A stretch of 32,000 bases of DNA from Dickeya dadantii NCPPB 898 (GCF_000406145.1 NZ_CM001976.1:193186-225185), one strand, 5' to 3'; positions 11,364-31,125 are shown, counted from the stretch's first letter. Program-made: numbers and translations. The notes: generated by a model not told the origin, from the letters alone.

Positions 11364-11401
11364 ACAAAAAGCCATTTTTCCCCACGCGTGCGCGTGAAAT
11401 C

Positions 11402-14657: not shown

Positions 14658-14761
14658 ATATGTTATGCCCACCAATGGTGGGCATCGTATCGATGTGGTC
14701 GATATGTGGACATTGTAAGAAATAAATCCTTTTATTTCATGTGGATGGTGTAATTATTTGT

Positions 14762-14808: not shown

Positions 14809-14881
14809 GGCGAGCTATAGGATTGTGTGACTATCCTGCCCTGATCGTAAGCCATCCGTTTTCTGCAGGATGGCGGATATC

Positions 14882-15370: not shown

Positions 15371-15544
15371 GTCTTATCTCCTTCACCTTTCTTCATGTTG
15401 TGTCTGAAAAATAATAATAATCGCTGGCTTAGTTGCTATTTTCAGCCCGGTTATTTTCTGGGGGAGTGATATTTCTGTCATACCAATGATGTTACTAATC
15501 ATCATTCACTTTCCAGATCTCCATAGTTATAAAAAACTGAACGG

Positions 15545-15728
15545 GGTTTGTTGTGCTATCGCTGTTCCAACCCTCGCTGCGCGCGTTTTTGCTGGCCCGT
15601 CAGCATAATGTCCTCCACTGCCACAACGGGCTGAAATCGCTTGGAAAAGCGTGTATCGACAGGCGTGGCGGTATCTGTTCCATACCCTTGCATGGGTCCC
15701 TTTATCGCTAATTCTGATGAGACACGTT
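15545..15728 (+). pseudogene. decayed 3' stub of a gene I homologue upstream of H2
   Basis: Translations in shifted frames (QPSLRAFLLARQHNVLHCHNG, then GVAVSVPYPCMGP) align with gpI AKPVSRHLLGLNIVMDCAGN and GDALTVYPYFPET. The stub ends at the H2 ATG, as the real I/H junction does. Confidence 0.5.
15552..15609 (+). promoter_or_regulatory. Ogr-box-like late promoter (degenerate right half-site) for H2
   Basis: TGTgctatcgctgttCCA (15552-15569), then 34 nt, then CATAAT (15604-15609). Confidence 0.4.
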
Positions 15729-17006
15729 ATGAGCACAAAATATACCGCTCTGCTTACCCAGGTGGGGGCAGCCAGGCTGGCGAATGCGATTGCGCTGGGA
15801 AAACAGCTGGAAATTACCCAAATGGGGGTGGGAGACGCTGGTGGCACGCTGCCGACGCCGGATGCGGCACAGACCAAACTGATTAACGAAAAACGACGCG
15901 CGCCGCTCAATTCACTGAACATCGACCCGACCAACGCCAATCAGATTATTGCCGAGCAGGTGATTCCGGATCACGAAGGTGGATTCTGGCTGCGTGAAAT
16001 CGGTTTGTATGACGCCGATGACAATCTGGTGGCGGTGGCCAACTGCCCCGAAACCTATAAACCGCAGATGCAGGAAGGCTCCGGCCGCGTGCAGACGGTA
16101 CGCATGATTCTGGCGGTCGGTCAGACTGATGCGGTGTCGCTGAAAATCGACCCGGCGGTGGTGCTGGCTAGCCGGCAGTATGTGGATAACATGGCCCTGG
16201 CTAAAGCTAAAAATGGCGAGGATATTGCGGATAAAGCGCAGTTTATAGAGAATTTGGGCGTGAGGAGCTCATTCTCCGGTGTAATTGGCATGACGCGAAA
16301 TGCCACGATGAATATTCCCTCCGTTTCTTCTAATGCCAGATTTTTTGCCGATGAAATCATTGTTGGAACGTCTTTGGGAGGACGCCAGTATCGAATTGGT
16401 TTATTCGAAAAGACGATCGATCTGACAAAAACTGGCGTTGGGGGGATGGATACCGGAACGGTCCCTGATGAGGGTTTTGTCGGGATTTATGTCATTTATA
16501 ATCCGGCGACGATGGCGTCAGGCTTGCTCGCGGTTAACGCCACTTCGGTCAAGTTGGCGGAGATCTATAACGGAACCAATATGCCGGATGGATATACAGC
16601 ATCGGCATTATTGACGGTTGTGCCGGTCAAGGCGGGTAAGTTTATTCCATTATCTGTTCGAGAGCGGATCGTATCTACACCATCAAGGAAAATATATTCT
16701 ACTTTAAAAGGCTCAGTAGATTTTAATATTCCTATTAGTGCTATTGTTCCATTAAATACTAAATATTTAAGTGGACATGCTCGACAAGGTAGCACTGCTT
16801 CTGGGTCATTATCGATGACAATTTCTGGTAGTGAAAATGGTTTATCTGGGCAGCAGATGACAGCCTATATTATGGAAAATGGACTTATCTCGCAGAATTA
16901 TGCTGATATTGTAATCGTTAATGATGGCTATATTTCTATCGCCACAAGTAATGCAACGTTAGGAAATGCAACATTTGACGTTTATGTTTCTAGATACTCG
17001 ATATAA
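15729..17006 (+). CDS. tail fibre paralogue H2 (H1-type body, distinct tip)
   Basis: Starts MSTKYTALLTQVGAARLANA. It has the conserved gpH N-domain. The ORF-track extension back to 15651 runs through the gene I stub. Confidence 0.85.
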   Translation: MSTKYTALLTQVGAARLANAIALGKQLEITQMGVGDAGGTLPTPDAAQTKLINEKRRAPLNSLNIDPTNANQIIAEQVIPDHEGGFWLREIGLYDADDNLVAVANCPETYKPQMQEGSGRVQTVRMILAVGQTDAVSLKIDPAVVLASRQYVDNMALAKAKNGEDIADKAQFIENLGVRSSFSGVIGMTRNATMNIPSVSSNARFFADEIIVGTSLGGRQYRIGLFEKTIDLTKTGVGGMDTGTVPDEGFVGIYVIYNPATMASGLLAVNATSVKLAEIYNGTNMPDGYTASALLTVVPVKAGKFIPLSVRERIVSTPSRKIYSTLKGSVDFNIPISAIVPLNTKYLSGHARQGSTASGSLSMTISGSENGLSGQQMTAYIMENGLISQNYADIVIVNDGYISIATSNATLGNATFDVYVSRYSI

Positions 17007-17060
17007 TATATGATTGGAACGATTTTTCATAAAAATCCACTTGATTTTTAAATTACATAT

Positions 17061-17090
17061 TGGTCTCATTAATAACTGAGACCATTTTTT
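17061..17090 (+). terminator. rho-independent terminator after H2
   Basis: tggtctca-ttaataac-tgagacca-tttttt. Confidence 0.7.
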
Positions 17091-17104
17091 AGAGAATATA
17101 CCCG

Positions 17105-17351
17105 TGATTTTACCCACGTAAAGTGGATACAGCCCTAAGCGAGGTTCTGGTTTTCAAATTGTTCCGGGTTGAGGCCGCCGCAAGCACTATGTCGATGCCA
17201 GCGGTTATAATCGCACTCGATATAATTAAACACCGTTGTTTTCATCTTTTCCCGACTGGCAATGTGCTTGCCGTGGATACATTCAATTTCAGCGAATGGA
17301 AAAATCTTTCCACGCAGGCATTATCACAACAACATCTTTTGGCACTCATGC
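17105..17351 (-). mobile_element. IS3-group fragment: terminal inverted repeat plus orfB 3' end
   Basis: The end reads tgattttacccacgtaaagtggatacagccctaagcgaggttc. The minus-strand translation ..[49 protein letters not shown] resembles the C-terminus of E. coli IS3 OrfB. It is truncated by the next IS. Confidence 0.65.
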
Positions 17352-17367
17352 TGTAAGCTCACCCGTT

Positions 17368-17658
17368 TTAGTTCCACACATTTTTTGAGATTTCCGGGTT
17401 TTCAGCTATCAGCCGGTATTCTTCCGGCGTCAGGTTATTCAGGGATTCATGAGGCCGTTCGCTGTTGTATTCGTGCAGCCAGCGCTCTGTGATTTCCCTG
17501 ACTTCATTCAGTGTTCTGAACAGATAAAAATCCAGGATTTCTGTCCGGTATGTCCGGTTGAACCGCTCGATGAAGGCATTTTGTGTCGGCCTGCCAGACT
17601 TAATAAAGTCCAGCATCACACCATGCTCCTCCGCCCACTGCGCCAGCGTCAGAGACAC
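17368..17658 (-). pseudogene. IS3-family orfB, C-terminal part
   Basis: ..GRPTQNAFIERFNRTYRTEILDFYLF...YNSERPHESLNNLTPEEY. The frame continues upstream as PELVSLTLAQW, which is the expected continuation of ...RMDNG at 19215. Confidence 0.75.
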
Positions 17659-17672
17659 CAGCTCGGGGTCGT

Positions 17673-19206
17673 GGTACCTGTGTAATACCTGACTGATGAG
17701 CTACTGGTCAGCATGTCATAAATTTTCTACACCAGGAATGAGTGCAACGTCTGGAGAAATATCATGATTGACATTACCTGCTGCGATACCCCGGTAACAT
17801 GGGCTACTATTGATATTGCTAAAAAATATCACGATGCAAAGATTAAACGCTCAAACGGTCAGGTTGTTTATCTGCGCGTCGAAAACTCACTCTCCGGGTA
17901 TACCCGGTTAATCAATCTTGCCCGTGGAGCCGGGGAAAAGAGGGTTGCCGGTTTCGAACCGACCGCCGATTATCACCGTAATATTGCCTAGTGGCTTCAG
18001 GAGCAGGGCGTCGAGTGCCATCTTGTTTCCTCGCTGGCCTGCGCCAGGGCGCGCGAAATACTTTTCAAAACCTGGGATAAAAATGACCGGAAAGATACCT
18101 GTGTCATTCTCTATCTTATGGGGCAAGGGGTTTCATCACCTTTTTATGATCCCCTGGCTAATGAAATGATGGATATTCAGGAGGTATCAAATACCTATTA
18201 TCAGATTTCCCTTGCAAGAACCCGCAGCCTCAACAGCCTGGTAAATCATTATCTGACGTTATATTTTCCTGAAGCTGAACAGTTTTACACCAGTCCCGGA
18301 CAGAATGGTTTTGTCAGTTTCTGCTGAGATTCCCCACACCACTGACAATCACCTCAATGGAAAAACACCAGTTTTTTGAGGAAGCCTGGGACATTATTGG
18401 CCGCAAACATACAAACAACAGTTTCTTGAACAGTTATATAACATTGCCGGGAATTCTGTAGCCCTGCCGCTGACGGAAAATTGCCTGGCTGTTACCACGT
18501 TTAAGCTACAAATCCGGCGGTACGTTGAACTGACTCTTCAACGACTCCAGTTAGAAAAAATGGCTGAAAGCTATCTGCAGGATCGCGCTGATTACCGCCA
18601 TCTGCGCTCGCTACCCGGCGTAGGCCCGGTGATTGCAATGATGATCATTGCTGAAAGCGGCGATCTGAACCGTTTTGCTCATTACCGTCAGTATATTAAT
18701 TACTGCGGATTTAACCTTTCAGCCAGTCAGAGTGGACAAAGGTGTAGTGGTTATAGCCTGTCAAAACGTGGAAATGCACGGCTGAGATATGCATTCTGGC
18801 TCGCTGCTACAGTCGCCATCAGAATGCAGGAAAACACCCTCAGGAACAAATATGAGCGCTATCTTAACATGGTGATACACCTGATCAGCGTCGTAAGGCC
18901 ATAACGGCTGTTGCAGCAAAACTTGCACGAATAGCGCATTCTGTAGTGAAAAGAAATGTAGATTATCAGAGGTATTTCGATATAAGCCATGGGACGTGAT
19001 TCAAACGGGTCGTAAGGCGCATCGCGACCACCAGATAATGCTCAATGCCCATGGCTTTTCCTGATGCTTTGTTAAGTCCTGTCGGGCCATATGGACCCTT
19101 GTATATCATGGTAAGCACGCCTGGCCAGCGGCGGACAGCAATATCACAATCAGAAACCGGCATGTGCTCTGGCAGACCTTTTTTTGTAAATCAGATTGAT
19201 TAAGAA
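17673..19206 (+). mobile_element. IS110-family element nested in the IS3-family orfB
   Basis: A roughly 1.5-kb insert sits exactly between the two halves of orfB and carries IS110-type transposase fragments. Confidence 0.65.
17764..18904 (+). pseudogene. IS110-family (DEDD) transposase, frameshifted
   Basis: Pieces lie in at least 3 frames: WATIDIAKKYH...GFEPTADYHRNIA, then WLQEQGVECHLVSS...DRKD, then LRSLPGVGPVIAMMIIAESGDLNRF...SGYSLSKRGNARLRYAFW. Confidence 0.65.
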
Positions 19207-19706
19207 GGTAGTCCGTTATCCATCCGCATCTTCAGCTGATAGCCGCGATTTGCCACGACCTTGTCCAGTATACGGATAACCCGTTGTGCCGGGATATTCG
19301 GGTCGATTTCAATGGCCAGTGCTTCGCGGTTAAAGTCATCCACCACATTGAAAGTCCGGAATCGTCTGCCACACATCAGCGCATCGTGCATGAAATCGAT
19401 GGACCAGCTCTGGTTGAGCGCTTCCGACGTAGCCAGTGGTGCCGGGCTACGCACCGGCAGACGCTGCTTTCCCTTACGACGAAAATTCAGTTTCAGCAGG
19501 CAATAAATCCGGTGAACACGCTTGTGATTCCAGGCGCTGCCCTGCCTGCGAAGCACCTGAAACAGTTTCTTAAAACCGTATCGCGGATAGCGTTCCGCCA
19601 TTTCAGTCAGTACCTGGATCACCGGTTCATCCCTGCCCGTATCCGGCTGATAAAAATAGACCGTCCTGCTCAGCGACAATGTCCTGCATGCCTGGTGGAT
19701 GCTCAT
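19200..19706 (-). pseudogene. IS3-family orfB, N-terminal part
   Basis: YGFKKLFQVLRRQG...WSIDFMHD...DDFNREALAIEID (the first D and second D of the DDE motif). It ends prematurely at the IS110 junction. Confidence 0.75.
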
Positions 19707-19756
19707 CGAAAATTGTGTTGTCAGGTAACCGACGAGCTCACGCTTTATCGCTGGTT

Positions 19757-20023
19757 TTAAAGCTTTTTTTCGATAACGTCTTTTAACGCCCGGTTCTCCA
19801 GACTCAGATCGGCAAACATTTGTTTGAGGCGACGATTTTCGTCCTCAAGATCCTTCATCTTTTTGATATCAGAGGTTTCCATACCGCCAAACTTTGCTTT
19901 CCAGTTATAGTACGAGGCCTCGGATATCCCCGCTTCCCGGCAGACATCTTTGACTGTGCGTCCGGCTTCGACGGACTTGAGAACGGCGATGATCTGGTGT
20001 TCGGTGAATCGGGCTTTACGCAT
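19757..20023 (-). CDS. IS3-family orfA (HTH + leucine zipper) with A_AAA_AAG frameshift site
   Basis: RFTEHQIIAVLKSVEAGRTVKDVCREAGISEASYYNWKAKFGGME. The slippery AAAAAAG (plus strand 19763-19769) lies just before the stop, and the -1 frame runs into orfB. Confidence 0.8.
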   Translation of the reverse strand: MRKARFTEHQIIAVLKSVEAGRTVKDVCREAGISEASYYNWKAKFGGMETSDIKKMKDLEDENRRLKQMFADLSLENRALKDVIEKKL

Positions 20024-20216
20024 GACGAGCTCGTCTCAGGGACATAATCAGTATGTCGGGAGATCTCTAAAAGTGAATGGTCCGGTTTGGCGGGATGCTT
20101 ACAGATCAGTTCAGTGTCACTATGGCACATTTTTTCTCTATTTCTGAGTCTTTATTAATGTTATATTCAGAGTAATAAATTGCAAGCTGTGCTGTTGAAC
20201 TAATAGAGTAGATGAT

Positions 20217-21200
20217 ATGGATATTTGTATTGAAGAGGCTGTAAGGCAAAGAATTCTCAAGATGACTAAAGAGCTGAGAATTGAGAGAATAGTACTTGGT
20301 ATGGATATGAGCACTCCAGGTATTGAGATTTCTCCTCTTTATAATCCAATAACGGATAAATCAAAACATAACGTATATTATACCGATTATACATCTGCTG
20401 AAGAATCACGTAAAAAGCATGCTGACTATGAACACGATGAAATCGTAGATCTCGATTTCATATGGGATCAGAAATTAACACTTTCTGAGTGTGTTCCTGC
20501 TGGGAATAAATTTGAATGGGCAATTGCGTCACATGTCTTAGAGCATGTCCCTGACCCTGTTGGATGGATGAATGAGATTTTAGACACACTGAATGATCGA
20601 GGAATTATTTCTCTCGTACTTCCTAATGCAGATTTAATTGGAGATCATTTAAGAAAAAAAACAGAAGTTTCGGATTTGATAGAGTCATGGCTTTATGGTA
20701 GGGAATTACCCGGACCATCTCAACTATACGACTTTCTTAGAAACACAATATCTCAAGGAAGTACGTCTGTCGCTTCAGGTGACGGCAGGCACTATACGAA
20801 AAAACAAGCAATTGACTTTGTAATCCACTCATGGACAACTGGCGAATACCTTGACGCACATTGCTCTGTGTTCAGTCCGGAAAGCTTTGTTGAGCTCATT
20901 GAAGAGTTAACGTCACTTGGCATAATGAATGTTAAAGTTGTTGAGCTTTGTCCGGCAGGTCAGGAGTTTTATGTGAAACTACAAAAAATGGGGCCCCCTT
21001 CGCTATTGCTACCCCAACGCTTTTCTCCTTATAGTTCAATGGAGTCCGCAGATCACCAGATCGCCTGTCTTACTAAAGACCTTCAGCATGCAAGGATGGC
21101 ATTTAATCAAGCCGTTGAAGTACAGGAAAAACTTAAAAAGGAAATAGAGAATTTGCAAAAAGGGCCACTCTATTTTCTTAAGCGTATACTTCATAAATAG
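20217..21200 (+). CDS. putative SAM-dependent methyltransferase-like protein with C-terminal coiled coil
   Basis: GIEISPLYNP...VYYTDY...FEWAIASHVLEHVPDPVGWMNEILDTLNDRGIISLVLPN resembles a class I MTase fold family, judged from memory only. The gene is AT-rich and flanked by insertion sequences. Confidence 0.45.
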   Translation: MDICIEEAVRQRILKMTKELRIERIVLGMDMSTPGIEISPLYNPITDKSKHNVYYTDYTSAEESRKKHADYEHDEIVDLDFIWDQKLTLSECVPAGNKFEWAIASHVLEHVPDPVGWMNEILDTLNDRGIISLVLPNADLIGDHLRKKTEVSDLIESWLYGRELPGPSQLYDFLRNTISQGSTSVASGDGRHYTKKQAIDFVIHSWTTGEYLDAHCSVFSPESFVELIEELTSLGIMNVKVVELCPAGQEFYVKLQKMGPPSLLLPQRFSPYSSMESADHQIACLTKDLQHARMAFNQAVEVQEKLKKEIENLQKGPLYFLKRILHK

Positions 21201-21339
21201 TAAAGTTGGCGGCGTATGCCGCCTCAAAAAATTCTATTTCTCTAATTGAGAAAGCGTTCAGAATTCTGTGTCACGTTAAAAAGACGACAGCGCCATCATA
21301 TTATTCAGCCGCTCGTCAAAATGAATGGCTAGCTGGGGT

Positions 21340-22258
21340 AATGTCAAATTCCAGTTCTGGACGGACATTGTCCATTTTTTAAGAGCTTGTCCGTAATTCT
21401 GTGTAACTGCCACGGTATTAAAGGTGATCGCTCAGGCGGTCACCGAACTAGATAATAAAACGGCTCATCGCCAGCCGCCAGTTTTGGATCGGCATACTCC
21501 ATTTTTTCGACGCCGCCCGTATCGCCAGATAAACAACCTTGCGCACCGAGTCGTCCGTTGGGAACACGCTGCGTTTCTTTATTGCCTAGCGGATAACGCT
21601 GTTCAATGATTCTATTGCGTTGGTGGTATATATCGCCTTACGGATGTCGGGCGGGTAGCCAAAGAGCGTGTCCAGTGCCATCAGCGCCGCCTCCTCTGTG
21701 GGGGCCTGATACACCGCCTTCAACCCGCTGGTGACCTCTTTGTAATCCTTCCACGACACGTATTTCAGGCTGCTACGCACCATGTGGATGATGCAGAGCT
21801 GGGTATGTGTTTGAGGATAAACGCTGTTTATCGCATCCGGGAAGCCCTTCAGACCGTCCACGCAGGCAATCAGGATGTCCTGAAGCCCCCGGTTTTTCAG
21901 CTCCGTCAGTACATTGAGCCAGAACTTCGCGCCTTCATTTTCGGCCAGCCACATACCCAATTTCGGCCAGCCACATACCCAATAACTCTTTCTGGCCTTC
22001 TGTACTGATGCCCAATGCGAGGAGCACGGCTTTGTTGATTACGCTGCCGCTGTAACGAACTTTTACCACGATACAATCAAGATAAACAATCGGATACAGC
22101 GAGTTCAGTGGCCGATTTTGCCATTCTGTCACCTGTTCTTTAACCGCATCAGTTACTTTGGATATCAGCGTGGGGAAACATCTGCATCATACATCTCTTT
22201 GAAGGTGGCAACGATTTCCCGCGTGGTCATGCCTTTGGCATACAGAGATAAAATCTGG
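21340..22258 (-). mobile_element. IS256-family element remnant (transposase pseudogene, 5'-truncated)
   Basis: [14 protein letters not shown]...[24 protein letters not shown]...[12 protein letters not shown]...CIIHMVRSS...[11 protein letters not shown]. It carries two in-frame TAG codons near the 3' end and a 22-bp tandem duplication (21939-21982). The lower boundary is approximate. Confidence 0.7.
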
Positions 22259-22261
22259 ACT

Positions 22262-22303
22262 GACCCCGCTTAGGGCCGTGTCCACATTAGGTGGGTAGGA
22301 TCA
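22262..22303. repeat. orphan IS3-group terminal inverted repeat
   Basis: The reverse complement tgatcctacccacctaatgtggacacggccctaagcgggg pairs with the IS3 end at 17105. The two ends bracket the whole 5.2-kb IS mosaic. Confidence 0.55.
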
Positions 22304-22370
22304 GTAACCTGTTTTCCTTGCCATAGACACCATCCCCATCTTTCGCCCATCTTTGATGGCGGGTTTTTTT
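22304..22370 (+). ncRNA. CpxQ sRNA / cpxP 3'UTR-like element with terminator, copy B
   Basis: gtaacctgttttccttgccatagacaccatccccatctttcgcccatctttgatggcgggttttttt. From memory it resembles the conserved enterobacterial cpxP 3' end, and cpxP is the upstream neighbour of fieF in E. coli. Confidence 0.4.
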
Positions 22371-22397
22371 GTCCATACTCTGTGCCGCCTTTTCTTA

Positions 22398-22581
22398 GTA
22401 CTGTTGTGCCATGACTGTGCGAACCCCCACGACGCGCGTTTTTGCTGGCCCGTCAGCATAATGTCCTCCACTGCCACAACGGGCTGAAATCGCTTGGAAA
22501 AGCGTGTATCGACAGGCGTGGCGGTATCTGTTCCATACCCTTGCATGGGTCCCTTTGTCGCTAATTCTGATGAGACACGTT
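22398..22581 (+). pseudogene. decayed gene I 3' stub upstream of H3
   Basis: Near-identical to the H2 stub from about 22430 onward, with recognisable similarity from about 22400. Confidence 0.5.
22405..22462 (+). promoter_or_regulatory. Ogr-box-like late promoter (degenerate right half-site) for H3
   Basis: TGTgccatgactgtgCGA (22405-22422), then 34 nt, then CATAAT (22457-22462). Confidence 0.35.
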
Positions 22582-23868
22582 ATGAGCACAAAATATACCG
22601 CTCTGCTTACCCAGGTGGGTGCAGCCAGGCTGGCGAATGCGATTGCGCTGGGAAAACAGCTGGAAATTACCCAAATGGGGGTGGGAGACGCTGGTGGCAC
22701 GCTGCCGACGCCGGATGCGACACAGACCAAACTGATTAACGAAAAACGACGCGCGCCGCTCAATTCACTGAACGTCGACCCGGCCAACGCCAATCAGATT
22801 ATTGCCGAGCAGGTGATTCCGGATCACGAAGGTGGATTCTGGCTGCGTGAAATCGGTTTGTATGACGCCGATGACAATCTGGTGGCGGTGGCCAACTGCC
22901 CCGAAACCTATAAACCGCAGATGCAGGAAGGCTCCAGCCGCGTGCAGACGGTACGCATGATTCTGGCGGTCGGCCAGACTGATGCGGTATCGCTGAAAAT
23001 CGACCCGGCGGTGGTGCTGGCTAGCCGGCAGTATGTAGATAACATGGCTGACGGAAAACTGGCTAAAGCTCAAAATGGTGCGGATATTACGAATAAAGCT
23101 CAGTTTATAGAGAATTTGGGTGTGAGGAACTCATTCTCCGGTGTAATTGGCATGACGCGAAATGCCACGATGAATATTCCCTCCGCTTCTTCCAGCGCCA
23201 CATTTACTGCCGATGAGATAATTGTTGGAACTGCTCTGGGGGGAAACCAATATCGGATTGGTTTATTCAAGAAGACGATCGATCTGACAAAAAATGGCGT
23301 TGGGGGAATGGATACCGGAACGGTCCCTGATGAGGGGTTTGTCGGGATTTATGCCATTTATAATCCGGCGACGATGGCGTCAGGCTTGCTCACGGTTAAC
23401 GCCACCTCAGTTAAATTGCCGGAAATCTATAACGGAACCAATATGCCGGATGGATATACAGCATCGGCATTATTGACGGTTGTGCCGGTCAAGGCGGGTA
23501 AGTTTACCGTATTATCTGTCTTTGGAAGGCAAGTGCATATTCCTGGAGTACGAGTCTATTCTGGATTACCAAATACATCAGGTGTTGATATTCCCGTTAG
23601 TAAATTCATTCCATTGAATACAAGAACTATTAGTGGGGTATTACGGCAGAGTAGTACGGGAGATGGCCTTGTATCCATAACAGTATCTAGTAATCTGAGT
23701 CCTGTTTCTGGTCAGCAGATGACAAATTATGTGTTTGCAAATATGGAGGTGTCAAATAATTATGCTGATATTCTGATTGTTGATGAGGGACATATTGTGG
23801 CTGCTGCGAGTAACGCAACATCAGGAAATGCGACGGTTATTATTGGCATATCTAAATATGCTATATGA
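22582..23868 (+). CDS. tail fibre paralogue H3 (near-copy of H2 with replaced tip)
   Basis: Starts MSTKYTALLTQVGAARLANA. It is nearly identical to H2 up to ..VPVKAGKF and then diverges. Confidence 0.85.
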   Translation: MSTKYTALLTQVGAARLANAIALGKQLEITQMGVGDAGGTLPTPDATQTKLINEKRRAPLNSLNVDPANANQIIAEQVIPDHEGGFWLREIGLYDADDNLVAVANCPETYKPQMQEGSSRVQTVRMILAVGQTDAVSLKIDPAVVLASRQYVDNMADGKLAKAQNGADITNKAQFIENLGVRNSFSGVIGMTRNATMNIPSASSSATFTADEIIVGTALGGNQYRIGLFKKTIDLTKNGVGGMDTGTVPDEGFVGIYAIYNPATMASGLLTVNATSVKLPEIYNGTNMPDGYTASALLTVVPVKAGKFTVLSVFGRQVHIPGVRVYSGLPNTSGVDIPVSKFIPLNTRTISGVLRQSSTGDGLVSITVSSNLSPVSGQQMTNYVFANMEVSNNYADILIVDEGHIVAAASNATSGNATVIIGISKYAI

Positions 23869-23949
23869 AATTCTGGTTGATGATGAGTTTATGAGATTTT
23901 TACTGTATTATCCTGTTTTTTAATATTATTTTTTTTGGTTTTTATTCAT

Positions 23950-23980
23950 TGATCTCATTAATAATCGAGGCCATTTTTTT
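23950..23980 (+). terminator. degenerate copy of the H2 terminator after H3
   Basis: tgatctca-ttaataat-cgaggcca-ttttttt. The stem is imperfect and homologous to 17061-17090. Confidence 0.4.
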
Positions 23981-24019
23981 GTAAGAGAAAATATTGTTAA
24001 TTCTAAGTGTTTTATCTGT

Positions 24020-24077
24020 TGTGCCATAAATATCACACCTCCCATATCGAATTATTTCATTAAGCGAGCAGCATAAT
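24020..24077 (+). promoter_or_regulatory. Ogr-box late promoter candidate for H4 (inside an AT-drifted gene I stub, about 24013-24201)
   Basis: TGTgccataaatatcACA (24020-24037), then 34 nt, then CATAAT (24072-24077). Confidence 0.5.
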
Positions 24078-24201
24078 GTTTTTAACGATAACAATGGGCA
24101 TGAATTACTTGAAAATTATGACGATCCATTTTCTTTCATAAGCATTTCATACCGGTGTTATATGACCTTTTCCTTTATAAATAATCCTGCAGAGAGCAAA
24201 T

Positions 24202-25494
24202 ATGGGTATTAAATACGTTACATTGCTTACCCGGGTCGGCGAGGTCAAACTGGCAGCATCGATCTTGACCGGAAAACCACTGCAAATTGCCCAAATGGGG
24301 GTGGGAGATGGCGGCGGTACTCTGCCGACGCCGGATGCGACACAGACCAAACTGGTTAATGAGAAACGGCGTGGTGCCATCAATTCACTGACGATTGATC
24401 CCAACAACACCAACCAGATTATTGCCGAACAGGTGATCCCGGAAAATGAAGGTGGGTTTTGGTTACGCGAAATCGGCCTGTATGATGTGGATGGTGATCT
24501 GATTGCAGTCGGTAATTGCCCGGAAACCTATAAGCCGGAATTGAAGGAAGGCTCCGGTCGGGTACAGACGGTACGCATGATTCTGATTGTGAGCCATACT
24601 GATGCGGTGATGATGACGTTTGACCCAACGGTGGCGCTGGCAAGCCGGCAATATGTCGATGACAAGACATTATCCTCGCTAGCGTATACCGACACGAACG
24701 TGATCGAAGTTAAATCGTATACTGACAACTTGTTAGCGGAGCATATTGCTGCGGCCGATCCGCACAAACAATATGCGCCGATTGATAGCCCGGTATTTGT
24801 TGGTAACCCCACTGCGCCGACACCGCCTTTCTTTGATGCCGACACCAGTATCGCCACCACCGCGTTTGTACAACGTGCGTTGGGAAATATGAAATCAGCG
24901 TTTGGCGTCAGGGAAAATAAGGTACTTACCAGTGATGCCTTTGGCTGTTTCATCGAGTCGCAAATAGCCGGTATCACGATTACGTTGCCTGATGCATCAC
25001 TTTGTCCTGGCGGAGTCATTGAGTTTAATAATATTTCCAATGGCGCAGTTACTGTTTCTGGCGCGAGTGTAGATATTCTCGGACCGAATAATCCATCTGG
25101 TTCGAAGATGTTGAAAATTCAAAGTGGCGTAAATGTAAAATTTCTTTCCACTGGGCCGCAATGGAGAGCGATAGGTGGAGTAGGGATTGCTGGTGCAGGA
25201 TTGAATGGTTATCAGGTGTTGCCATCTGGTATTATTATTCAATGGGGTGTTGGAAAAACGTTAGCAGCAGGTGTTATTAATCAAACATTCCCTATTGTAT
25301 ATCCCAATAATTTTTTCTCAGTAGTCATTACAGAAAATAATTCCGTTGGGTGGAATTACACTGGTGTGACTGTCTATGGGCAAAGCAATAGTACCAAGGA
25401 AATGTTAAAAGGGTATGGTGCTTTTGTCCGTAATGGTGGTTCTGTCGAATTTTCTTCTGATATCTCTTATCAATTTATTGCGATAGGGAACTGA
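24202..25494 (+). CDS. tail fibre paralogue H4
   Basis: It has the gpH N-domain and a shaft segment shared with H5 (ASRQYVDDKTLS.LAYTDTNVIEVKSY.DNLLAEHIAA..PHKQYAP). The motif ATTAFV is present. The AT-rich C-terminus contains YQVLPSGIIIQWG, a tip type common in enterobacterial phage fibres. Confidence 0.85.
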   Translation: MGIKYVTLLTRVGEVKLAASILTGKPLQIAQMGVGDGGGTLPTPDATQTKLVNEKRRGAINSLTIDPNNTNQIIAEQVIPENEGGFWLREIGLYDVDGDLIAVGNCPETYKPELKEGSGRVQTVRMILIVSHTDAVMMTFDPTVALASRQYVDDKTLSSLAYTDTNVIEVKSYTDNLLAEHIAAADPHKQYAPIDSPVFVGNPTAPTPPFFDADTSIATTAFVQRALGNMKSAFGVRENKVLTSDAFGCFIESQIAGITITLPDASLCPGGVIEFNNISNGAVTVSGASVDILGPNNPSGSKMLKIQSGVNVKFLSTGPQWRAIGGVGIAGAGLNGYQVLPSGIIIQWGVGKTLAAGVINQTFPIVYPNNFFSVVITENNSVGWNYTGVTVYGQSNSTKEMLKGYGAFVRNGGSVEFSSDISYQFIAIGN

Positions 25495-25502
25495 GGTGTA
25501 AT

Positions 25503-25880
25503 ATGTTTTATTCCAAGTCAAATAGTGGTTTTTATAGTAAAGACGTTAATGGCGCTAACATTCCCGATGATGCTGTTGAAATTAGTGATGATTATTATCA
25601 ACATTTATTGAATGAGCAGGCGCTTGGCAACACGATTATTTTTGATGAATTGGCGAAAAAACCTATCGCCGTTACCCCGGCCCCCGTATCAGAAACTCAG
25701 TTGGCTGAAGCAGCACGGCGGCAGCGTGACAATTTATTGATCGCCAGCGATTGGACCCAGGTGCCGGATGCGCCGGTTGATCAGCAAGCCTGGCGTTCTT
25801 ATCGTGCAGTATTGCGTCAGGTGCCGGAACAAACAGGTTTTCCTCACAATGTAGAGTGGCCGGTGTCGCCTGGAAAATAA
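25503..25880 (+). CDS. tail fibre assembly chaperone for H4
   Basis: The C-terminal R.QRDNLLIASDWTQVPDAPVDQQAWRSYRAVLRQVPEQTGFPHNVEWP is a typical chaperone motif. GAGGTG RBS. Confidence 0.8.
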   Translation: MFYSKSNSGFYSKDVNGANIPDDAVEISDDYYQHLLNEQALGNTIIFDELAKKPIAVTPAPVSETQLAEAARRQRDNLLIASDWTQVPDAPVDQQAWRSYRAVLRQVPEQTGFPHNVEWPVSPGK

Positions 25881-25925
25881 ATAAAAGCGCACTTTATTCA
25901 CGCTCTCCGCTTTGTTTCATTTTTT

Positions 25926-25951
25926 CCCGCCTTTACGGCGGGTTTATTTTT
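25926..25951 (+). terminator. rho-independent terminator
   Basis: cccgcc-tttac-ggcggg-tttattttt. Confidence 0.7.
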
Positions 25952-25961
25952 AATTACATGT

Positions 25962-26019
25962 TGTGTCATGGCCGACACAACGCCAGCCATACGACACGAT
26001 GCTATCCCCTTTGGATAAT
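25962..26019 (+). promoter_or_regulatory. Ogr-box late promoter candidate for H5 (inside a gene I stub, about 25955-26131)
   Basis: TGTgtcatggccgacACA (25962-25979, part of the 7-bp inverted repeat TTGTGTC/GACACAA), then 34 nt, then GATAAT (26014-26019). Confidence 0.5.
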
Positions 26020-26131
26020 GTTGTCTGAAACAGCAATAGAATGGAATGCGTTGCAAATACTGGTGGCTATTTTTTCAGGCAATTATTGCAACGTCAGTGA
26101 CACTTTTAGGCGACATAAGGGGATACTGATT

Positions 26132-27316
26132 ATGGCAGTGAAATATATGGCATTGCTTACTCATGTGGGAACGACGAAATTGGCGAATGCCACTGCGTTG
26201 GGAAAAACGCTGGATATTACACATATGGGGGTAGGTGATGGAGGTGGAAATCCGACAACGCCAGATCCTGCTCAAACGGCATTGGTTAATGAAAAACGTC
26301 GTGCTCCACTAAATTATCTGAGTGTGGATCCGGCTAATCCCAACCAGATTATTGCCGAACAGGTGATTCCGGAAAATGAAGGCGGATTCTGGCTGCGTGA
26401 GATCGGTTTGTATGACGCGGATGGCGATCTGATTGCGGTGGCCAACTGCCCGGAAACCTATAAGCCGGAACTGAAGGAAGGGTCTGGCCGGGTACAGACG
26501 GTGCGCATGATTCTGATTGTTAGCCATACCGATGCGGTGGCGTTGAAGTTTGACCCAGCGGTGGCGCTGGCAAGCCGGCAATATGTCGATGACAAGACAT
26601 TATCCGCGCTGGCGTATACCGACACGAACGTGATCGAAGTTAAATCGTATGCTGACAACTTGTTGGCGGAGCATATTGCTGCGACCAATCCGCACAAGCA
26701 ATATGCGCCGATTGTCAGCCCGGCGTTAACCGGTATTCCCACCGCGCCGACAGCGGTGGCAGGAACCAATACGACACAACTGGCAACCACTGCGTTTGTT
26801 GCTGGCGCTATTGATTTGCTATCAGGTAAAACAGACAACAACGTCAAACTAAAACTGGATATTAACGACATCGTTGGTATTCCATTGCCGTGGCCGCAGG
26901 CTACCGCCCCGGCGGGCTGGCTTAAATGTAACGGTCAAGCGTTTGATAAAAATCGCTACCCGCGGCTGGCGCAGGTTTATCCGTCAGGTGTATTGCCGGA
27001 TTTACGCGGCGAATTTATTCGTGGTTGGGATGATGGGCGAGGAGTAGATACCGGGCGCGCTATTTTGTCAGCACAAACGGGATCACTCATCGTTGGCGAT
27101 ATTGCCAACAATATTAACATGGCGACGCTGAATAATGTTGGCGAAGCAGCGACAAAAGCCAATGTAGGCTGGGATACCGCTGAATTGACCTCAGCCAAAT
27201 ATCCGTCCATCCGGGTTAACGTTGTGTCTGGTCAAACGGCGACTGATCCCTATCCATATTGTGGTGTCGCCCGCCCCCGCAACCTCGCCTTTAACTACAT
27301 CGTGAGGGCGGCGTGA
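26132..27316 (+). CDS. tail fibre paralogue H5 with tail-collar-type C-terminal domain
   Basis: Starts MAVKYMALLTHVG with an AAGGGGA RBS. The C-terminal PLPWPQATAPAGWLKCNGQAFDKNRYPRLAQVY...LPDLRGEFIRGWDDGRG is the phage tail collar motif. The ORF-track start at 25856 is read-through of the upstream region. Confidence 0.85.
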   Translation: MAVKYMALLTHVGTTKLANATALGKTLDITHMGVGDGGGNPTTPDPAQTALVNEKRRAPLNYLSVDPANPNQIIAEQVIPENEGGFWLREIGLYDADGDLIAVANCPETYKPELKEGSGRVQTVRMILIVSHTDAVALKFDPAVALASRQYVDDKTLSALAYTDTNVIEVKSYADNLLAEHIAATNPHKQYAPIVSPALTGIPTAPTAVAGTNTTQLATTAFVAGAIDLLSGKTDNNVKLKLDINDIVGIPLPWPQATAPAGWLKCNGQAFDKNRYPRLAQVYPSGVLPDLRGEFIRGWDDGRGVDTGRAILSAQTGSLIVGDIANNINMATLNNVGEAATKANVGWDTAELTSAKYPSIRVNVVSGQTATDPYPYCGVARPRNLAFNYIVRAA

Positions 27317-27936
27317 TGACGGTCCCGACACAGGAAGCATGCGCTATGCTGACGGCCGAGGGGCTGGCGTCCCGTGCAGGCTGGTTACGGGTGTATCATG
27401 CGGATACGGTAACCCGTGAATATGATGGCTACAGCGAGGAATATCTGATGTTGGGAACAGGGATTCCGGCGCACAGTTATGCTGATGGGCCGCCGCAATC
27501 TGTGGCGGAAGGGCAAACGCTGCGCCGTTCGTCCGATGGTCTACGGTGGGAACTGATACCAGATCTTCGCGGGCGGACTGTCTACGATACACAGACGCGC
27601 CAGCCGCAGGTGGTGAGTGAGCTGGGGCCGTTGCCCATCAGTCTGACCCTGCTGCTGCCTGCCAGCGAGTTTGACTGCTGGAATGGTGTGCAATGGGTGA
27701 CCGATATCGCCGCTCATCAGGCAAGTCTGGCGCAGTCGGCGCGGCAGGAGCGCGATACCCGGCGTCAGGTTGCGCATGACCGTATCCGGGAACTGACCTA
27801 TGCGCAGGAACTGGAGATGGCCACCGAACAGGAAATCCGGGCGCTTAAGGACTGGAAAATCTATCTGGTGCAGTTAAGCCACATCGACCCGACCCATGCG
27901 CCGGATATTGACTGGCCGACCATACCAACAAACTGA
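27316..27936 (+). CDS. Tfa/gpG-type tail fibre assembly protein for H5
   Basis: GTGATGA overlap with the H5 stop. The C-terminal YAQELEMATEQEIRALKDWKIYLVQLSHIDPTHAPDIDWP is the Tfa signature. Confidence 0.85.
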   Translation: MTVPTQEACAMLTAEGLASRAGWLRVYHADTVTREYDGYSEEYLMLGTGIPAHSYADGPPQSVAEGQTLRRSSDGLRWELIPDLRGRTVYDTQTRQPQVVSELGPLPISLTLLLPASEFDCWNGVQWVTDIAAHQASLAQSARQERDTRRQVAHDRIRELTYAQELEMATEQEIRALKDWKIYLVQLSHIDPTHAPDIDWPTIPTN

Positions 27937-27953
27937 TTTGAATCTGTCGTGAT

Positions 27954-28001
27954 ACCCGTTCGGAATAACAACGCTCTGTTATTCCGAACGGGTTGTTTTT
28001 T
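27954..28001 (+). terminator. strong rho-independent terminator
   Basis: A 17-bp perfect stem, acccgttcggaataaca / tgttattccgaacgggt, followed by tgtttttt. Confidence 0.8.
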
Positions 28002-28081
28002 ATTGGCCTCTCTGACCGGCTGTTTATCCCCTTGCTTCTTAATGAGATCTTCATCTTGCTGGCAGGCATCAATAGCTTTGT

Positions 28082-28138
28082 TGTGCCATCGTCGTCACAC
28101 CCTTGTGAACGGGTGATTTTACTGGCTATCAGCATAAT
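28082..28138 (+). promoter_or_regulatory. Ogr-box late promoter candidate for H6 (inside a gene I stub, about 28075-28240)
   Basis: TGTgccatcgtcgtcACA (28082-28099), then 33 nt, then CATAAT (28133-28138). Confidence 0.5.
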
Positions 28139-28240
28139 GGTTGTCAGAAGGCAGACAGGACAATCAGCACTTGCCGTGCTTTGATCCTCCCCTGCAGCTG
28201 CCTGACCTTTTTCTTTAAAATCATGCTGATGAGAGAATCG

Positions 28241-29599
28241 ATGGGGACCAAATATTTCACCTTGCTCACCCAGATGGGTGAGAAAAAACTGGCGGCTGCG
28301 ATAGCCGCAGGAAAACCGCTGGAGCTGGTACAAATGGGGGTGGGGGATGGCAACGGTGTACTCCCCGCCCCGGATTCGGTACAGACCAGACTGGTTAATG
28401 AAAGACGGCGTGGGGCCATCAATTCACTAACGGTCGATCCGGATAATGCCAGCCAAATGATTGCCGAACAGGTGATCCCGGAAAATGAAGGCGGGTTCTG
28501 GCTGCGTGAAATCGGTCTGTACGATGTGGATGGCGATCTGATCGCGGTCGGCAACTGCCCGGAAACCTATAAGCCAGAATTGAAGGAAGGTTCCGGTCGG
28601 GTACAGACGGTACGCATGATTCTGATTGTCAGTCGCACCGATGCGGTGACGCTGAAGTTTGACCCGACGGTGGCGCTGGCGACACGGCGTTATGCGGATA
28701 CGTTGCTGGCCGATCATGTGGCAGCAATGAATCCGCACAAGCAGTATGCACCGATTGAAAGCCCGGTTTTTACCGGTAGTCCTACGGCACCGACACCAAC
28801 GGCAGGCGATAACAGTAAAAAGCTGGCAACAACGGAATTCGTCGCTGTCGGGCTATCAGGGAAAATGGATAAAAATCAGAACGGTGCTGATATCCAGGAT
28901 CCTGCCCAGTTTGTCAAAAACCTTGGTTTAGAAAGTCGCTTTGCAGGCCGCATCCTGCGCATAAAAAAAATCACCTCAAGCCAGAACTATCAATGGCCTG
29001 ATGATGTGTCTGCTATCGATGTCACCATTTGCGGTGCGGGCGGTGGTGGTGGTGCGGCGGCGGCATCCGCACAGAATTATCACTCGGCTGGGTCTGGCGG
29101 TGGCGCGGGTGGCTGTGCACGATCTTTTTATCGTAAAGGTGACATTCCTGCGTTGATCTATCTGGAGGTCGGAGCAGGCGGTATAGGCGGTGTAGACGCG
29201 ACATATGAACCGGGGTTGGGTGGCGCGACGAAATTTGGAACGTTAATGACGGCGAACGGGGGGTCAAGAGGTGCTAACGGTATTGCGATTGCAATCGGTA
29301 TGTCCGTCTTGATTGGTAACGGCGGTGGGGGTAATGCGTCTGGTGGGAATCTTGTCGCGGGTTTTGGCGGCTCAGGTACGCCTGCGATGTTTTTCAATAG
29401 TGGCTATGAATCCGGTGCGGGCGGTGATTCTGTTTTTTCATTTGGTGTACCGCCGATTGCATCAAATGCGCCTATAGGCGGATTTGATGGCGTAGATGGT
29501 GCTGGCGGTAGTGGCGGATATACGGTACCCGCAGGAGCCAGTGCTAAAGGCGGCAATGGCGGTAATGGCGTTATCATGATTGTGGAGTATTCAGCATGA
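28241..29599 (+). CDS. tail fibre paralogue H6 with glycine-rich C-terminal domain
   Basis: Starts MGTKYFTLLTQMGEKKLAAA. It has the gpH N-domain. The C-terminal roughly 190 aa are rich in GGxG runs (GAGGGGGAAAAS, GSGGGAGG, GNGGGGNASGGN, GAGGSGG). Confidence 0.85.
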   Translation: MGTKYFTLLTQMGEKKLAAAIAAGKPLELVQMGVGDGNGVLPAPDSVQTRLVNERRRGAINSLTVDPDNASQMIAEQVIPENEGGFWLREIGLYDVDGDLIAVGNCPETYKPELKEGSGRVQTVRMILIVSRTDAVTLKFDPTVALATRRYADTLLADHVAAMNPHKQYAPIESPVFTGSPTAPTPTAGDNSKKLATTEFVAVGLSGKMDKNQNGADIQDPAQFVKNLGLESRFAGRILRIKKITSSQNYQWPDDVSAIDVTICGAGGGGGAAAASAQNYHSAGSGGGAGGCARSFYRKGDIPALIYLEVGAGGIGGVDATYEPGLGGATKFGTLMTANGGSRGANGIAIAIGMSVLIGNGGGGNASGGNLVAGFGGSGTPAMFFNSGYESGAGGDSVFSFGVPPIASNAPIGGFDGVDGAGGSGGYTVPAGASAKGGNGGNGVIMIVEYSA

Positions 29600-29991
29600 G
29601 TAAAATATACGCGGTAATCGAGAACGGCGTGGTGATTAATACCGTGGTCTGGGATAGCGATGTTGAGGCTGACTGGAAGCCGCAGAATGGCGCGTTAATC
29701 GATATTTCATCAGAGCGTGTCGGTGTCGGTTATTTGTATTCTGACGGCGTGTTTACTCCACCCGAGAAACGCCGCGATGAATATATTGCGGACGCCACGC
29801 TACAAAAAACGCAGCTATTGTCAGAAGCGCAAAAAGCGATAGCAAACTGGCAGACCGACCTACTGCTGGGAATTATTTCTGACGATGATAAAAACCGGTT
29901 GGCCCGTTGGCGCGAGTACATGAAACAAATTGACGCTATTGATGTGCAGACCGCCCCAGCTATCAACTGGCCAATTCCCCCAGTCTCCTAA
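29596..29991 (+). CDS. tail fibre assembly chaperone for H6
   Basis: ATGA overlap with the H6 stop. The C-terminal LLLGIISDDDKNRLARWREYMKQIDAIDVQTAPAINWP is Tfa-like. Confidence 0.8.
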   Translation: MSKIYAVIENGVVINTVVWDSDVEADWKPQNGALIDISSERVGVGYLYSDGVFTPPEKRRDEYIADATLQKTQLLSEAQKAIANWQTDLLLGIISDDDKNRLARWREYMKQIDAIDVQTAPAINWPIPPVS

Positions 29992-30497
29992 CTGGATGTA
30001 GATGCCTTGCCCGCAGCCGGCCACAGCATCTCAACCAACTGCTCTGGATAGACTTGGTCCTGCGTGGCCAGCAGTTCATCGCGGCTCCACCAGTGGTGGT
30101 CCCGCATCACTTCCCGTTCATGTGCTGTCCATGCGTCAGTGTGGATGGCGCTGTCTGCAACGTGGATGACAAAAAACCGTTCATCGGCAATCACGGTGTC
30201 CCCGTTGGGCATCGCCATGTTAAAGGTTTGGGCAGCGAGGCAGGGGCCGGGGTCCTGGCGGCGGATGCCGGTTTCTTCCCACAGCTCCCGCAGCGCCGCT
30301 TGCTCAAAGCTTTCTCCGCTTTCCACTGCGCCGCCCGGCGTGGCCCAATAACGTTTCCCGGCAAGGGCATCACGAGTATGGTGAAACAGGAATAGCAACA
30401 CCCGTTGTTCAGGATTGAGGATCAGCAGGCGTGAGGCAGGTCGGCGTTTCATAAGGTTTCCTGGCGTATATCTGGTCGTCAGTATTTTCCCCGTCAT
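29988..30497 (-). CDS. Nudix hydrolase (likely start ATG 30452)
   Basis: Nudix box GGAVESGESFEQAALRELWEETGI. Its stop overlaps the stop of the convergent chaperone gene by 4 nt. Confidence 0.85.
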   Translation of the reverse strand: MTGKILTTRYTPGNLMKRRPASRLLILNPEQRVLLFLFHHTRDALAGKRYWATPGGAVESGESFEQAALRELWEETGIRRQDPGPCLAAQTFNMAMPNGDTVIADERFFVIHVADSAIHTDAWTAHEREVMRDHHWWSRDELLATQDQVYPEQLVEMLWPAAGKASTSS

Positions 30498-30654
30498 CTG
30501 AAGTGATGTCCATGCCGGCAGGCGAAATCCGCATGATGGCGCGGTTGCCGGTGTATGTCGGGCAACTGTCGGGTTGCTGTCCGGTTACTGTCGTGGTGTA
30601 TTGGCGGGGGCTGGCGCAGGCTGTTAGCAGGGTTTAATACAACAGGAGTACATC

Positions 30655-31125
30655 ATGAATACGATCAAATCACAGCGTCTTGCCCGCGCCTGGTCTCAGG
30701 AACAACTGGCTGAACTGTCTGCATTGAGCGTCAGAACCATCCAGCGGATCGAAAATGGGGAACGCGCCAGTCTGGAAACGCTCAGCGCCATTGCCGCCGC
30801 GTTTGGCGTTAACGTGACGGCGCTGATGGAGGAAGACAGCGAGCAGGCGGTGAGCGGCGAATCGCTGGCGCAGCGTATTGAGCTGGCCAGAACGCAGGTC
30901 GGGCAGGAGAGCCGTTTCTGGCGCAGCCTGCTGCTGTTTGTGCTGGTGAATGCGCTGTTGTTTGCCGTCAATCTGTTGGTCAACCCGCAAACGCACTGGT
31001 TCTTATGGCCGTTGTTGATTTGGGGCGGTGTGCTGGCGATTCGGGCGGCGCGGGTTTTCTGGCTGCGCGATCGCTGGTCGCGCTGGGAACAGGAGCGGTT
31101 GCAGAAAATTCTACGCAAGCCATAA
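30655..31125 (+). CDS. XRE-family HTH regulator with C-terminal 2-TM domain
   Basis: WSQEQLAELSALSVRTIQRIENGERASLETLSAIAAAFGV, plus two hydrophobic helices and a WLRDRW-type tail. Confidence 0.8.
   Translation: MNTIKSQRLARAWSQEQLAELSALSVRTIQRIENGERASLETLSAIAAAFGVNVTALMEEDSEQAVSGESLAQRIELARTQVGQESRFWRSLLLFVLVNALLFAVNLLVNPQTHWFLWPLLIWGGVLAIRAARVFWLRDRWSRWEQERLQKILRKP

Follow-up and report, generated by a model that had tools for sequence, protein, structure and literature searches.

Tail-fibre cassettes with P2-type late promoters in a chromosomal island of Dickeya dadantii: probable activation in trans by an Ogr-family protein

We analysed one strand of a 32,000-nucleotide stretch of the Dickeya dadantii NCPPB 898 chromosome (GCF_000406145.1 NZ_CM001976.1:193186-225185; hereafter the window), in which the tail half of a P2-like prophage is followed by an array of five tail-fibre genes (H2 to H6, all on the plus strand), each with a promoter of its own. 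The H2 promoter (15552-15609) is made up of the dyad TGTGCTATCGCTGTTCCA (15552-15569), 34 nt and a CATAAT -10 hexamer (15604-15609), with transcription expected to start at the A in 15617; its gene begins with the ATG at 15729 (15729-17006; Pfam Phage_tail_fib, 3.6e-62) and is followed by a terminator-like hairpin (17061-17084, by terminator scan, as for the other terminators given here). The H3 promoter (22405-22462; dyad TGTGCCATGACTGTGCGA at 22405-22422, 34 nt, CATAAT at 22457-22462) lies just 3' of a T-run terminator (22347-22370) and precedes a paralogue of H2 (22582-23868) that is 97% identical to it over the N-terminal 150 amino acids; the homology between the two starts exactly at the dyad (15549 and 22402), and D. 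dadantii 3937 has a single copy. The H4 promoter (24020-24077) has a perfect TGT-N12-ACA dyad (24020-24037), 34 nt and CATAAT (24072-24077), and its cassette (24202-25880) holds the fibre gene (24202-25494) and a Phage_tail_APC assembly chaperone (25503-25880), with a terminator at 25926-25942. In the H5 promoter (25962-26019) the perfect dyad is extended to GTTGT-N12-ACAAC (25962-25979) and is followed by 34 nt and GATAAT (26014-26019); the cassette (26132-27936) comprises the fibre gene (ATG at 26132; 26132-27316) and a tail-fibre assembly protein of the Caudo_TAP family (27313-27936), and a terminator with a 17-bp stem closes it (27954-27993). The H6 promoter (28082-28138) again has a perfect dyad (28082-28099), here with 33 nt before CATAAT (28133-28138) and an expected start at the A in 28146; it serves the final cassette (28241-29991; fibre gene 28241-29599 with its ATG at 28241, assembly protein 29596-29991), ahead of NUDIX and helix-turn-helix (HTH) genes and fieF.

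Each promoter thus stands before a gene with the N-terminal domain of P2 gpH (Phage_tail_fib; shown for H2), a chaperone gene follows the fibre gene in H4, H5 and H6, and strong terminators lie immediately 5' of the H5 and H6 promoters. Each cassette is self-contained, with a preceding terminator, dyad, -10, leader, fibre gene, chaperone where present, and terminator. The first-pass annotation of this DNA had placed all five dyads and -10 hexamers at these coordinates, with a spacer of 33-34 nt and the fibre ATG about 100-125 nt past the -10; we found the spacer to be 34 nt at four sites and 33 nt at H6, and the ATG to be 102-124 nt away. The 5' leaders are about 95-117 nt long, and a search of them for regulatory RNA gave folding z-scores of -0.9 to +0.5 and no Rfam hit. 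A second GTTGT motif, (G)GTTGT(C/G)AGA, abuts the -10 and spans the mapped +1 A in most cassette classes, with copies at 26020-26030 and 28139-28149 of the window and in many cassettes of loci L002-L022; it is absent from H2, H3 and H4 and from the sheath and X promoters of the tailocin P2D1 discussed below, and a discriminator, a second half-site and shared descent are its candidate roles.

The bare TGT-N12-ACA dyad, whose rarity the first-pass annotation had made a touchstone, was dropped as a signal in favour of the longer arm and spacing, since it occurs 10 times in the window against 6.2 expected and is not enriched. What is rare is the longer arm with a spaced -10: TGTTGTGYYAT occurs 5 times against 0.05 expected, GTTGTS-N47/48-SATAAT 5 times against 0.02, and the matches to each are exactly the five promoters. 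Their shared left arm is TGTTGTGCCAT, and the promoter code deduced from them is TGTTGTGCCAT-N7-ACA/CCA, 33-34 nt and a -10. The exact pattern recurred in 19 IMG/VR loci, with at most five sites per locus and a spacing of 1.4-1.9 kb, and in two Dickeya species in a scan of a genome collection that was not exhaustive, as it returned these two species and missed 3937 despite exact matches there. The architecture was seen at about 90 of the 99 H-like genes of the IMG/VR loci, 147-182 nt ahead of the ATG and often with a preceding T-run. In loci fetched through their proteins and not through the motif it stood before 28 of 34 H-like genes, the exceptions being the prophage I-H junction, a mutated allele of 3937 and two AT-rich cases. 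A P2-like tail cluster (L139; IMG/VR UViG_2808606816_000003, 1950-12462) carries several fibre-plus-chaperone cassettes, each with GTTGTC-N11-CCA-N34-CATAAT, and the gap past its gene I holds TGTTGTGCCATCGGCATGACT...CATTAT; such promoters are therefore not confined to the locus studied here.

We scored the window with a weight matrix whose sole input was ten late-promoter sites of P2, 186 and P4, annotated or candidate, with no Dickeya site among them; the activator sites and starts came from the annotation of the P2 and 186 records, and candidates were taken upstream of 186 orf32, P4 sid and PLL. Among 63,942 window positions H2 ranked first, H5 second, H3 third, H4 fourth and H6 tenth, and four sites reached at least 15.9 bits against 0.1 expected in Markov simulations. 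This comparison had been proposed as a check on the late-promoter assignment, and four of the five sites head the ranking. The proposed layout was borne out as well, with the dyad near -55 and the -10 at a fixed distance; a sigma-70 consensus scan found a -35-like hexamer (weak, 4/6) at H5 only and none at the other four sites. The TGT starts at -63/-64 in the array and at -64 to -66 in P2 PO, PF and PV and 186 pJ, as reckoned from their annotated starts.

Like the array, the late promoters of P2 (PP, PO, PV, PF), 186 (p12, pV, pJ) and P4 (Psid, PLL) combine a partial TGT-N12-ACA/CCA dyad near -55 with a -10 that lacks a -35, an equal distance from dyad to start, and a position ahead of morphogenetic genes. 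P2 PO and PF and 186 pJ and pV also have the extended GTTGTG left arm of the array, and functional P2 and 186 sites are mostly TGT-N12-CCA with this arm (PF, GGTTGTGCTGTCGATTAGCCA; PO, TGTTGTGTCAGTGATAAGCCA; 186 pJ and pV). The right halves of H2 and H3 had been called degenerate and the two promoters possibly weakened. For H2 this does not hold, because PF, PO, pJ and pV carry the same CCA, and the H2 orthologue in 3937 is the stronger of the mapped starts (109 reads, see below); H3 does have CGA, and its allele in other strains reads ...GCCA. The array differs in having one promoter per fibre gene, whereas H and G of P2 and 186 lack a dedicated promoter and are transcribed from that of the V operon, in having near-consensus -10 hexamers, where P2 late promoters depart much further from consensus, and in sitting outside any phage genome. 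The P2, 186 and P4 promoters need the zinc-finger activators Ogr, B and Delta, which act by way of the alpha subunit of RNA polymerase, a dependence that the sequence predicts for the array. On this sequence evidence, the five sites are genuine promoters of the P2 late class.

Another part of the first-pass annotation, that each promoter lies in a stub of the baseplate gene I that has been exapted, did not survive. Comparison of the five upstream regions with gene I of the prophage (3388-3996, plus strand) and its product returned only noise (best E-values 0.76 in blastn and 3.9 in tblastn), a MAFFT alignment showed no similarity either, and no second gene I-like segment was found anywhere in the window. 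The comparison once drawn with a homologous stretch inside intact gene I is without basis, because the upstream regions show no gene I homology. The upstream regions of H4, H5 and H6 have no mutual similarity detectable by BLAST outside the motif.

The cassettes belong to an island (14762-31125, plus strand) whose end we set at that of the HTH gene, similarity to 3937 running on to 32000. Its order is orf162 (minus strand), H2, a segment with insertion sequence (IS) debris, a methyltransferase gene and H3, then H4, H5, H6, NUDIX (minus strand) and HTH, and it is 97% identical to 3937 at 185100-186995 and 185887-195474. Ten records were reached through the 162-amino-acid open reading frame (ORF) left of H2. 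Those that span both flanks, such as 3937 (CP002038), run cpxA-cpxR-cpxP, orf162, fibre cassettes, NUDIX, HTH and fieF, and the shorter ones cover the cpx side. Gene order was checked in 3937 and eight other Dickeya records; in 3937, as in other strains, the array stands without the prophage. Compared with 3937, the window has the prophage and 1.9 kb inserted just downstream of cpxP. The right end of the prophage is at about 12883, 33 nt past ogr, where homology among prophage copies stops; an identical 82-amino-acid Ogr is found in many Dickeya genomes, flanked by pgsA-uvrC or pflB-focA-ycaO and with no fibre array, and the relative L124, with genes for portal, terminase, scaffold and capsid, shows that the element is a complete P2-like phage. 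Lying between cpxP and fieF and outside the prophage, the array is a chromosomal island that recurs across Dickeya; in this strain a complete P2-like prophage is integrated next to it. The first-pass annotation had wired the cassettes to the ogr gene of the window (12602-12850, plus strand; 82 amino acids, CPFC...CQNLEC zinc finger, PHROG/Pfam Ogr_Delta). That gene is present, but the array lies outside the prophage and a different Ogr is the better match, so the proposed wiring shifts. The inserted 1.9-kb stretch (12884-14761), with an M78 (ImmA/IrrE-type) peptidase gene (13309-13794) and a 264-amino-acid ORF, is absent from 3937 and from other prophage copies and stands beside the prophage in L011; phage cargo and a separate insertion are the alternatives for it.

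The better match is found in dickeyocin P2D1, the P2-derived tailocin of strain 3937; this comparison rests on 3937 and on IMG/VR clusters, all outside the window. P2D1 lies at 2.73-2.757 Mb of the 3937 chromosome, about 2.5 Mb from the array between cpxP and fieF. P2D1-like clusters are found in L140, L204 and L205; the gene order of L140 and L204 is that of the 3937 table (H, a 447-amino-acid gene, ydaL, pin, two side-fibre genes and a sheath gene starting MSDYHHG), and the left end of the cluster is a degenerate P2 early region. The sheath (FI) promoter of these clusters, gtcTGTTGTGCCATCGGATAGCAA-N34-CACTAT or, in short, cTGTTGTGCCATCGGATAGCAA...CACTAT, scores 18.2 bits, more than any other matrix hit in the locus, and 31 nt separate its -10 from the ATG. 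This distance in L140 reproduces the 24-nt leader of 3937, where the start is at 2751779 and the ATG at 2751803 (PMC9239193 tables). The same sheath promoter recurs in five further P2D1-like clusters, so that TGTTGTGCCAT stands at the FI promoter in six in total; a second TGTTGTGCCAT lies upstream of gene X in L140, and the 12-mer TGTTGTGCCATC is common to H6 and the P2D1-like FI promoter. The sheath and X-operon promoters of these clusters hence share both the arm and the geometry of the array. The fibre gene of the cluster itself is likewise a separate unit, as the array cassettes are: its promoter, of late type, follows gene I in the non-coding gap past a terminator, and its start is predicted 124 nt past the I stop codon, against 127 nt observed in 3937.

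Neither the window Ogr nor P2 Ogr, used as a protein query, led to a P2D1-type Ogr in Dickeya. It came to light only when IMG/VR contigs were followed outward from the P2D1-like tube gene: six further P2D1-like clusters end in U, D and ogr, the last encoding an Ogr of 63-64 amino acids (MMHCPLCRHSAHARSSRYLSENTKERYHQCTNVNC...) that shares 60-65% identity with P2 Ogr and 186 B. Array sites score high and prophage sites low on a matrix built from Escherichia coli phages because the array matches this P2D1-like system, whose Ogr is close to those of P2 and 186. About 90 nt upstream of the P2D1-type ogr (L206-L216) an AT-rich repeat, TTTGCAAATTCGAATTC, is conserved and precedes a -10-like element; the region resembles an operator-controlled promoter of the kind of 186 pB, which is repressed by CI, and a gene for a 289-amino-acid double-HTH repressor lies at the opposite end of the cluster (L205, 1-870). 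In L210 and L214 no match to the P2 tape measure was found, with about 1.2 kb between E and U, while L206, L207 and L208 have a match of 330-376 amino acids; the missing match is in keeping with a published statement that P2D1, whose tail is 166 nm long, 'lacks' a tape measure.

Transcription data from 3937 bear directly on the array. In differential RNA sequencing (dRNA-seq) of pooled cultures that were not deliberately induced, primary starts were mapped at 185955 (109 reads) and 191620 (60 reads) (PMC9239193, Tables S1/S2), whereas the starts predicted from the 3937 sequence are 185954, 189500 and 191619. The two mapped starts belong to the H2 and H6 orthologues and lie 8 nt past CATAAT, so that the start once expected about 7 nt past this hexamer is seen at these two and fails at the H4- and H5-type sites; the table has no other primary start between 185.1 and 193 kb (PMC9239193). 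The same study lists Dda3937_03056-58 and Dda3937_04434 as separate units with -10 CATAAT and discriminator GGTTGTC (PMC9239193). At the H4-type site of 3937 (about 187,500) the left half is TGTTTTTCCAT instead of TGTTGTGCCAT, CATAAT being intact, and no start supported by terminator exonuclease (TEX) was mapped (PMC9239193); the TGTTTTTCCAT allele is also found in records L119 and L120. The absence of a mapped start at this mutated H4 allele, a single natural allele, agrees with dependence on the dyad. Under topoisomerase I inhibition, the part of the PMC9458453 supplement used here gives Dda3937_03056, 03057 and 03058 as raised by log2 1.3-1.5, alongside recA, uvrA and sulA, with 04434 up by 0.7 and the P2D1 fibre gene 03808 up by 1.13. 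As far as these entries go, the array genes rise under stress of the DNA-damage type, as P2D1 does.

We believe the most plausible reading to be that the cassettes are autonomous late units, trans-activated by an Ogr-family protein, most likely that of P2D1, and that their fibres serve as alternatives; we would give it a probability of about 0.6. What we infer is that a protein of the Ogr family is required, which Ogr it is, and that P2D1 or a phage uses the fibres. DNA damage would derepress the P2D1 tailocin, and the P2D1-type Ogr then made would act in trans from its distant locus and bind the dyads at about -55. Bound Ogr would recruit RNA polymerase to promoters that have no -35. The remote cassettes would come on together with the tail genes, several fibres being co-expressed with their chaperones where present, and the array products would supply alternative fibres to the tail machinery.

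Several observations weigh against this reading. The H5-type site of 3937 has a perfect dyad and yet no TEX-supported start (PMC9239193), and the two starts that were mapped came from uninduced pools and may reflect some activator-independent activity. In the examined part of the induction table no P2D1 gene for sheath or baseplate appeared (PMC9458453). Mass spectrometry of purified P2D1, which was done on selected gel bands, reported only the two fibre proteins of the P2D1 cluster (PMC10719855). The ogr gene of 3937 itself would lie at about 2,756,860-2,757,050, a position that we derive from synteny offsets in L210 and the published cluster end at 2,757,061. Lastly, the N-termini of the array fibres, presumably the part that binds the baseplate, are 65-78% identical to the fibre of the prophage and to that of P2D1 alike. 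At equal identity to both candidates, these N-termini were set aside as an uninformative guide to the recipient machine.

A first alternative is that the cassettes belong to the prophage of the window and are induced with it through its own Ogr, the gene for which lies only 2.7 kb from the first cassette. Prophage and array adjoin in two other genomes too (L111; L011/L030). The late promoter of the prophage sheath gene FI (minus strand, 11306-11363; TTTTTGTTGTCGCCGGACGGCCAGA, 34 nt, GATTAT) is present just as the first-pass annotation had described it, as TGT-N12-AGA at the same spacing. It reads TTGTTGTCGCCGG...AGA, and it is kept upstream of FI in relatives with 75-99% FI identity, the right half being ACA in more distant ones. 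The FI and P/O promoters of the prophage (the latter read in L124) resemble those of the array in having a GTTGT arm, an N12 spacing and 34 nt before the -10. Ogr-family members of P2, 186, P4 and PSP3, moreover, cross-activate one another's promoters, and the divergent Ogr of the prophage may cross-activate the array, although it is not the best match. As a strong control within the window, however, the FI site was rejected for its poor matrix scores (rank 1900 with the P2/186/P4 matrix and number 10 with another), and only its conservation upstream of FI and its P/O twin in L124 rescued it. The prophage promoters (TTTTGTTGTCGSCGGASGGCCAGA) score low on the P2/186/P4 matrix, and their dyad core, TGTCGCCGGACGGCCAGA, differs from that of the array. 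The prophage Ogr shares 39-42% identity with P2 Ogr and 186 B and only 38-41% with the P2D1-type Ogr. In addition, homology between prophage copies stops at 12883, a prophage with the identical Ogr sits beside pgsA-uvrC or pflB without any array, and 3937 has the array and active starts beside cpxP with no prophage at all. We therefore consider it unlikely that the cassettes are governed by this prophage alone.

It is also conceivable that the sites are ordinary sigma-70 promoters with a strong -10 and no activator, the dyad having been kept through descent from one duplicated ancestor. The CATAAT hexamers are much nearer to consensus than the -10 elements of P2 late promoters, starts were mapped without deliberate induction, and many cassettes, falling into a few sequence classes, are clearly kin by descent. 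Simple descent does not account, however, for upstream regions of H4, H5 and H6 that can be aligned in the motif only, or for the recurrence of the arm elsewhere: P2 and 186 promoters have it, and so do the sheath and X promoters of P2D1-like clusters, which are not homologous to these sites. A -35 is missing from four of the five sites, no start was mapped at the 3937 allele whose left half is mutated and whose CATAAT is intact, and the array genes rise alongside SOS genes. On balance we find activator-free promoters quite improbable. That the conserved block is instead a recombination substrate, be it a target of the Pin-type invertase of P2D1 or a stretch of homology through which cassettes are swapped, is least credible of all in spite of the pin gene in P2D1, the H2/H3 duplication that starts exactly at the dyad and the common conserved 5' coding region of the cassettes, given that to our knowledge the site is unlike the 26-bp hix, gix and cix crossover sites, that all copies are in direct orientation, so that inversion would not exchange them, that starts lie at a fixed distance from the site, and that the element also stands ahead of sheath genes, which are not exchanged.

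The other genes of the window were assigned by ORF and family scans. The prophage has R, S, V, W, J, I and H1 on the plus strand, among them the tail gene J (2490-3395; its protein is 100% identical to a D. dadantii protein), the baseplate gene I given above and the fibre gene H1 (3993-5387); the block U, T, E, FII and FI follows on the minus strand (5565-11284), and D (11402-12565) on the plus strand. The FI-FII-E-T-U block is inverted relative to P2 in this prophage lineage, and likewise in Enterobacter phage phiT5282H. FI and D diverge from a 118-nt region that holds the dyad serving FI (the intervals around the inverted block are 5388-5564 and 11285-11401). Beyond ogr comes an accessory stretch, 97% identical to D. 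dadantii 3937, with the M78 peptidase, two unknown ORFs, H2, the IS debris, the methyltransferase, H3-H6, NUDIX and HTH. The interval between H2 and H3 (17007-22400) holds fragmentary ORFs, fragments of IS110-family and IS3-family transposases, a match to an isrN-type RNA (19616-19758) and the methyltransferase gene (20217-21200). Exact-sequence look-ups of FI, H4, the HTH protein and P0099 matched no record.

The array can be set beside known ways of varying the receptor-binding end of a contractile machine. Xenorhabdicin and photorhabdicin loci encode a P2-derived contractile tailocin with several alternative fibre modules and ogrK in the locus, the modules lying in cis, flanked by the sheath gene on one side and the main fibre gene on the other (PMC13280938). 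The Dickeya array is instead a separate locus, and its cassettes are complete: every one has a promoter and a terminator of its own, and most include a chaperone. The invertible segments of Mu (Gin), P1 (Cin), carotovoricin and P2D1 (pin) also diversify the receptor-binding end of one machine, but there inversion lets one promoter read one of two ends, whereas in the array each alternative has its own promoter, which therefore argues for co-expression and not switching. Satellite phage P4 has genes outside the helper genome that carry the late-promoter architecture of the helper and that Ogr-family proteins activate in trans. As a mobile replicon, however, P4 brings its own activator (Delta) and determinants of capsid size, while the Dickeya island encodes fibres and chaperones and no replication, integration or activator genes were seen in its sequence.

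The promoter type is that of the textbook P2 late promoter, and P2-type tailocins with ogrK and with fibre variation in cis are already known in Xenorhabdus. Within a limited literature search, which turned up no paper on the array genes or on a cpxP-linked fibre locus in Dickeya, what appears to be new is a chromosomal array of complete fibre cassettes each with a late promoter, the match of these promoters to those of the P2D1 tailocin, and ogr at the end of P2D1-like clusters. The texts of PMC10719855, PMC12297226 and bioRxiv 2024.09.28.615580 do not mention ogr. PMC10719855 and PMC12297226 describe the regulation of P2D1 as yet to be elucidated and attribute its killing range, including Pseudomonas, to the fibres of the P2D1 cluster alone. 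A candidate activator for this regulation is the P2-like ogr with which P2D1-like clusters end on the right, and the P2D1-type promoter code extends to a distant locus, where it precedes another four to six fibre genes.

More tentatively, and at rather less than even odds, the island may be a free-standing, trans-regulated receptor-binding repertoire, of four to six complete fibre-plus-chaperone cassettes and no tail, activator or mobility genes, the whole set of which could be switched on by any induced P2-type machine, whether the P2D1 tailocin or a P2-like prophage that integrates beside the island. It would then be wired by regulatory mimicry, as the satellite P4 is to its helper; mixed particles of differing specificity would be made, and fibre choice would be a chromosomal trait of tailocin and phage together. 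If trans-activation of the array is true, the specificity of soft-rot tailocins would be set by more genes than the cluster holds, which would affect both the prediction and the engineering of killing spectra, and the array would be a clear bacterial case of remote structural genes drawn into a phage-derived regulon.

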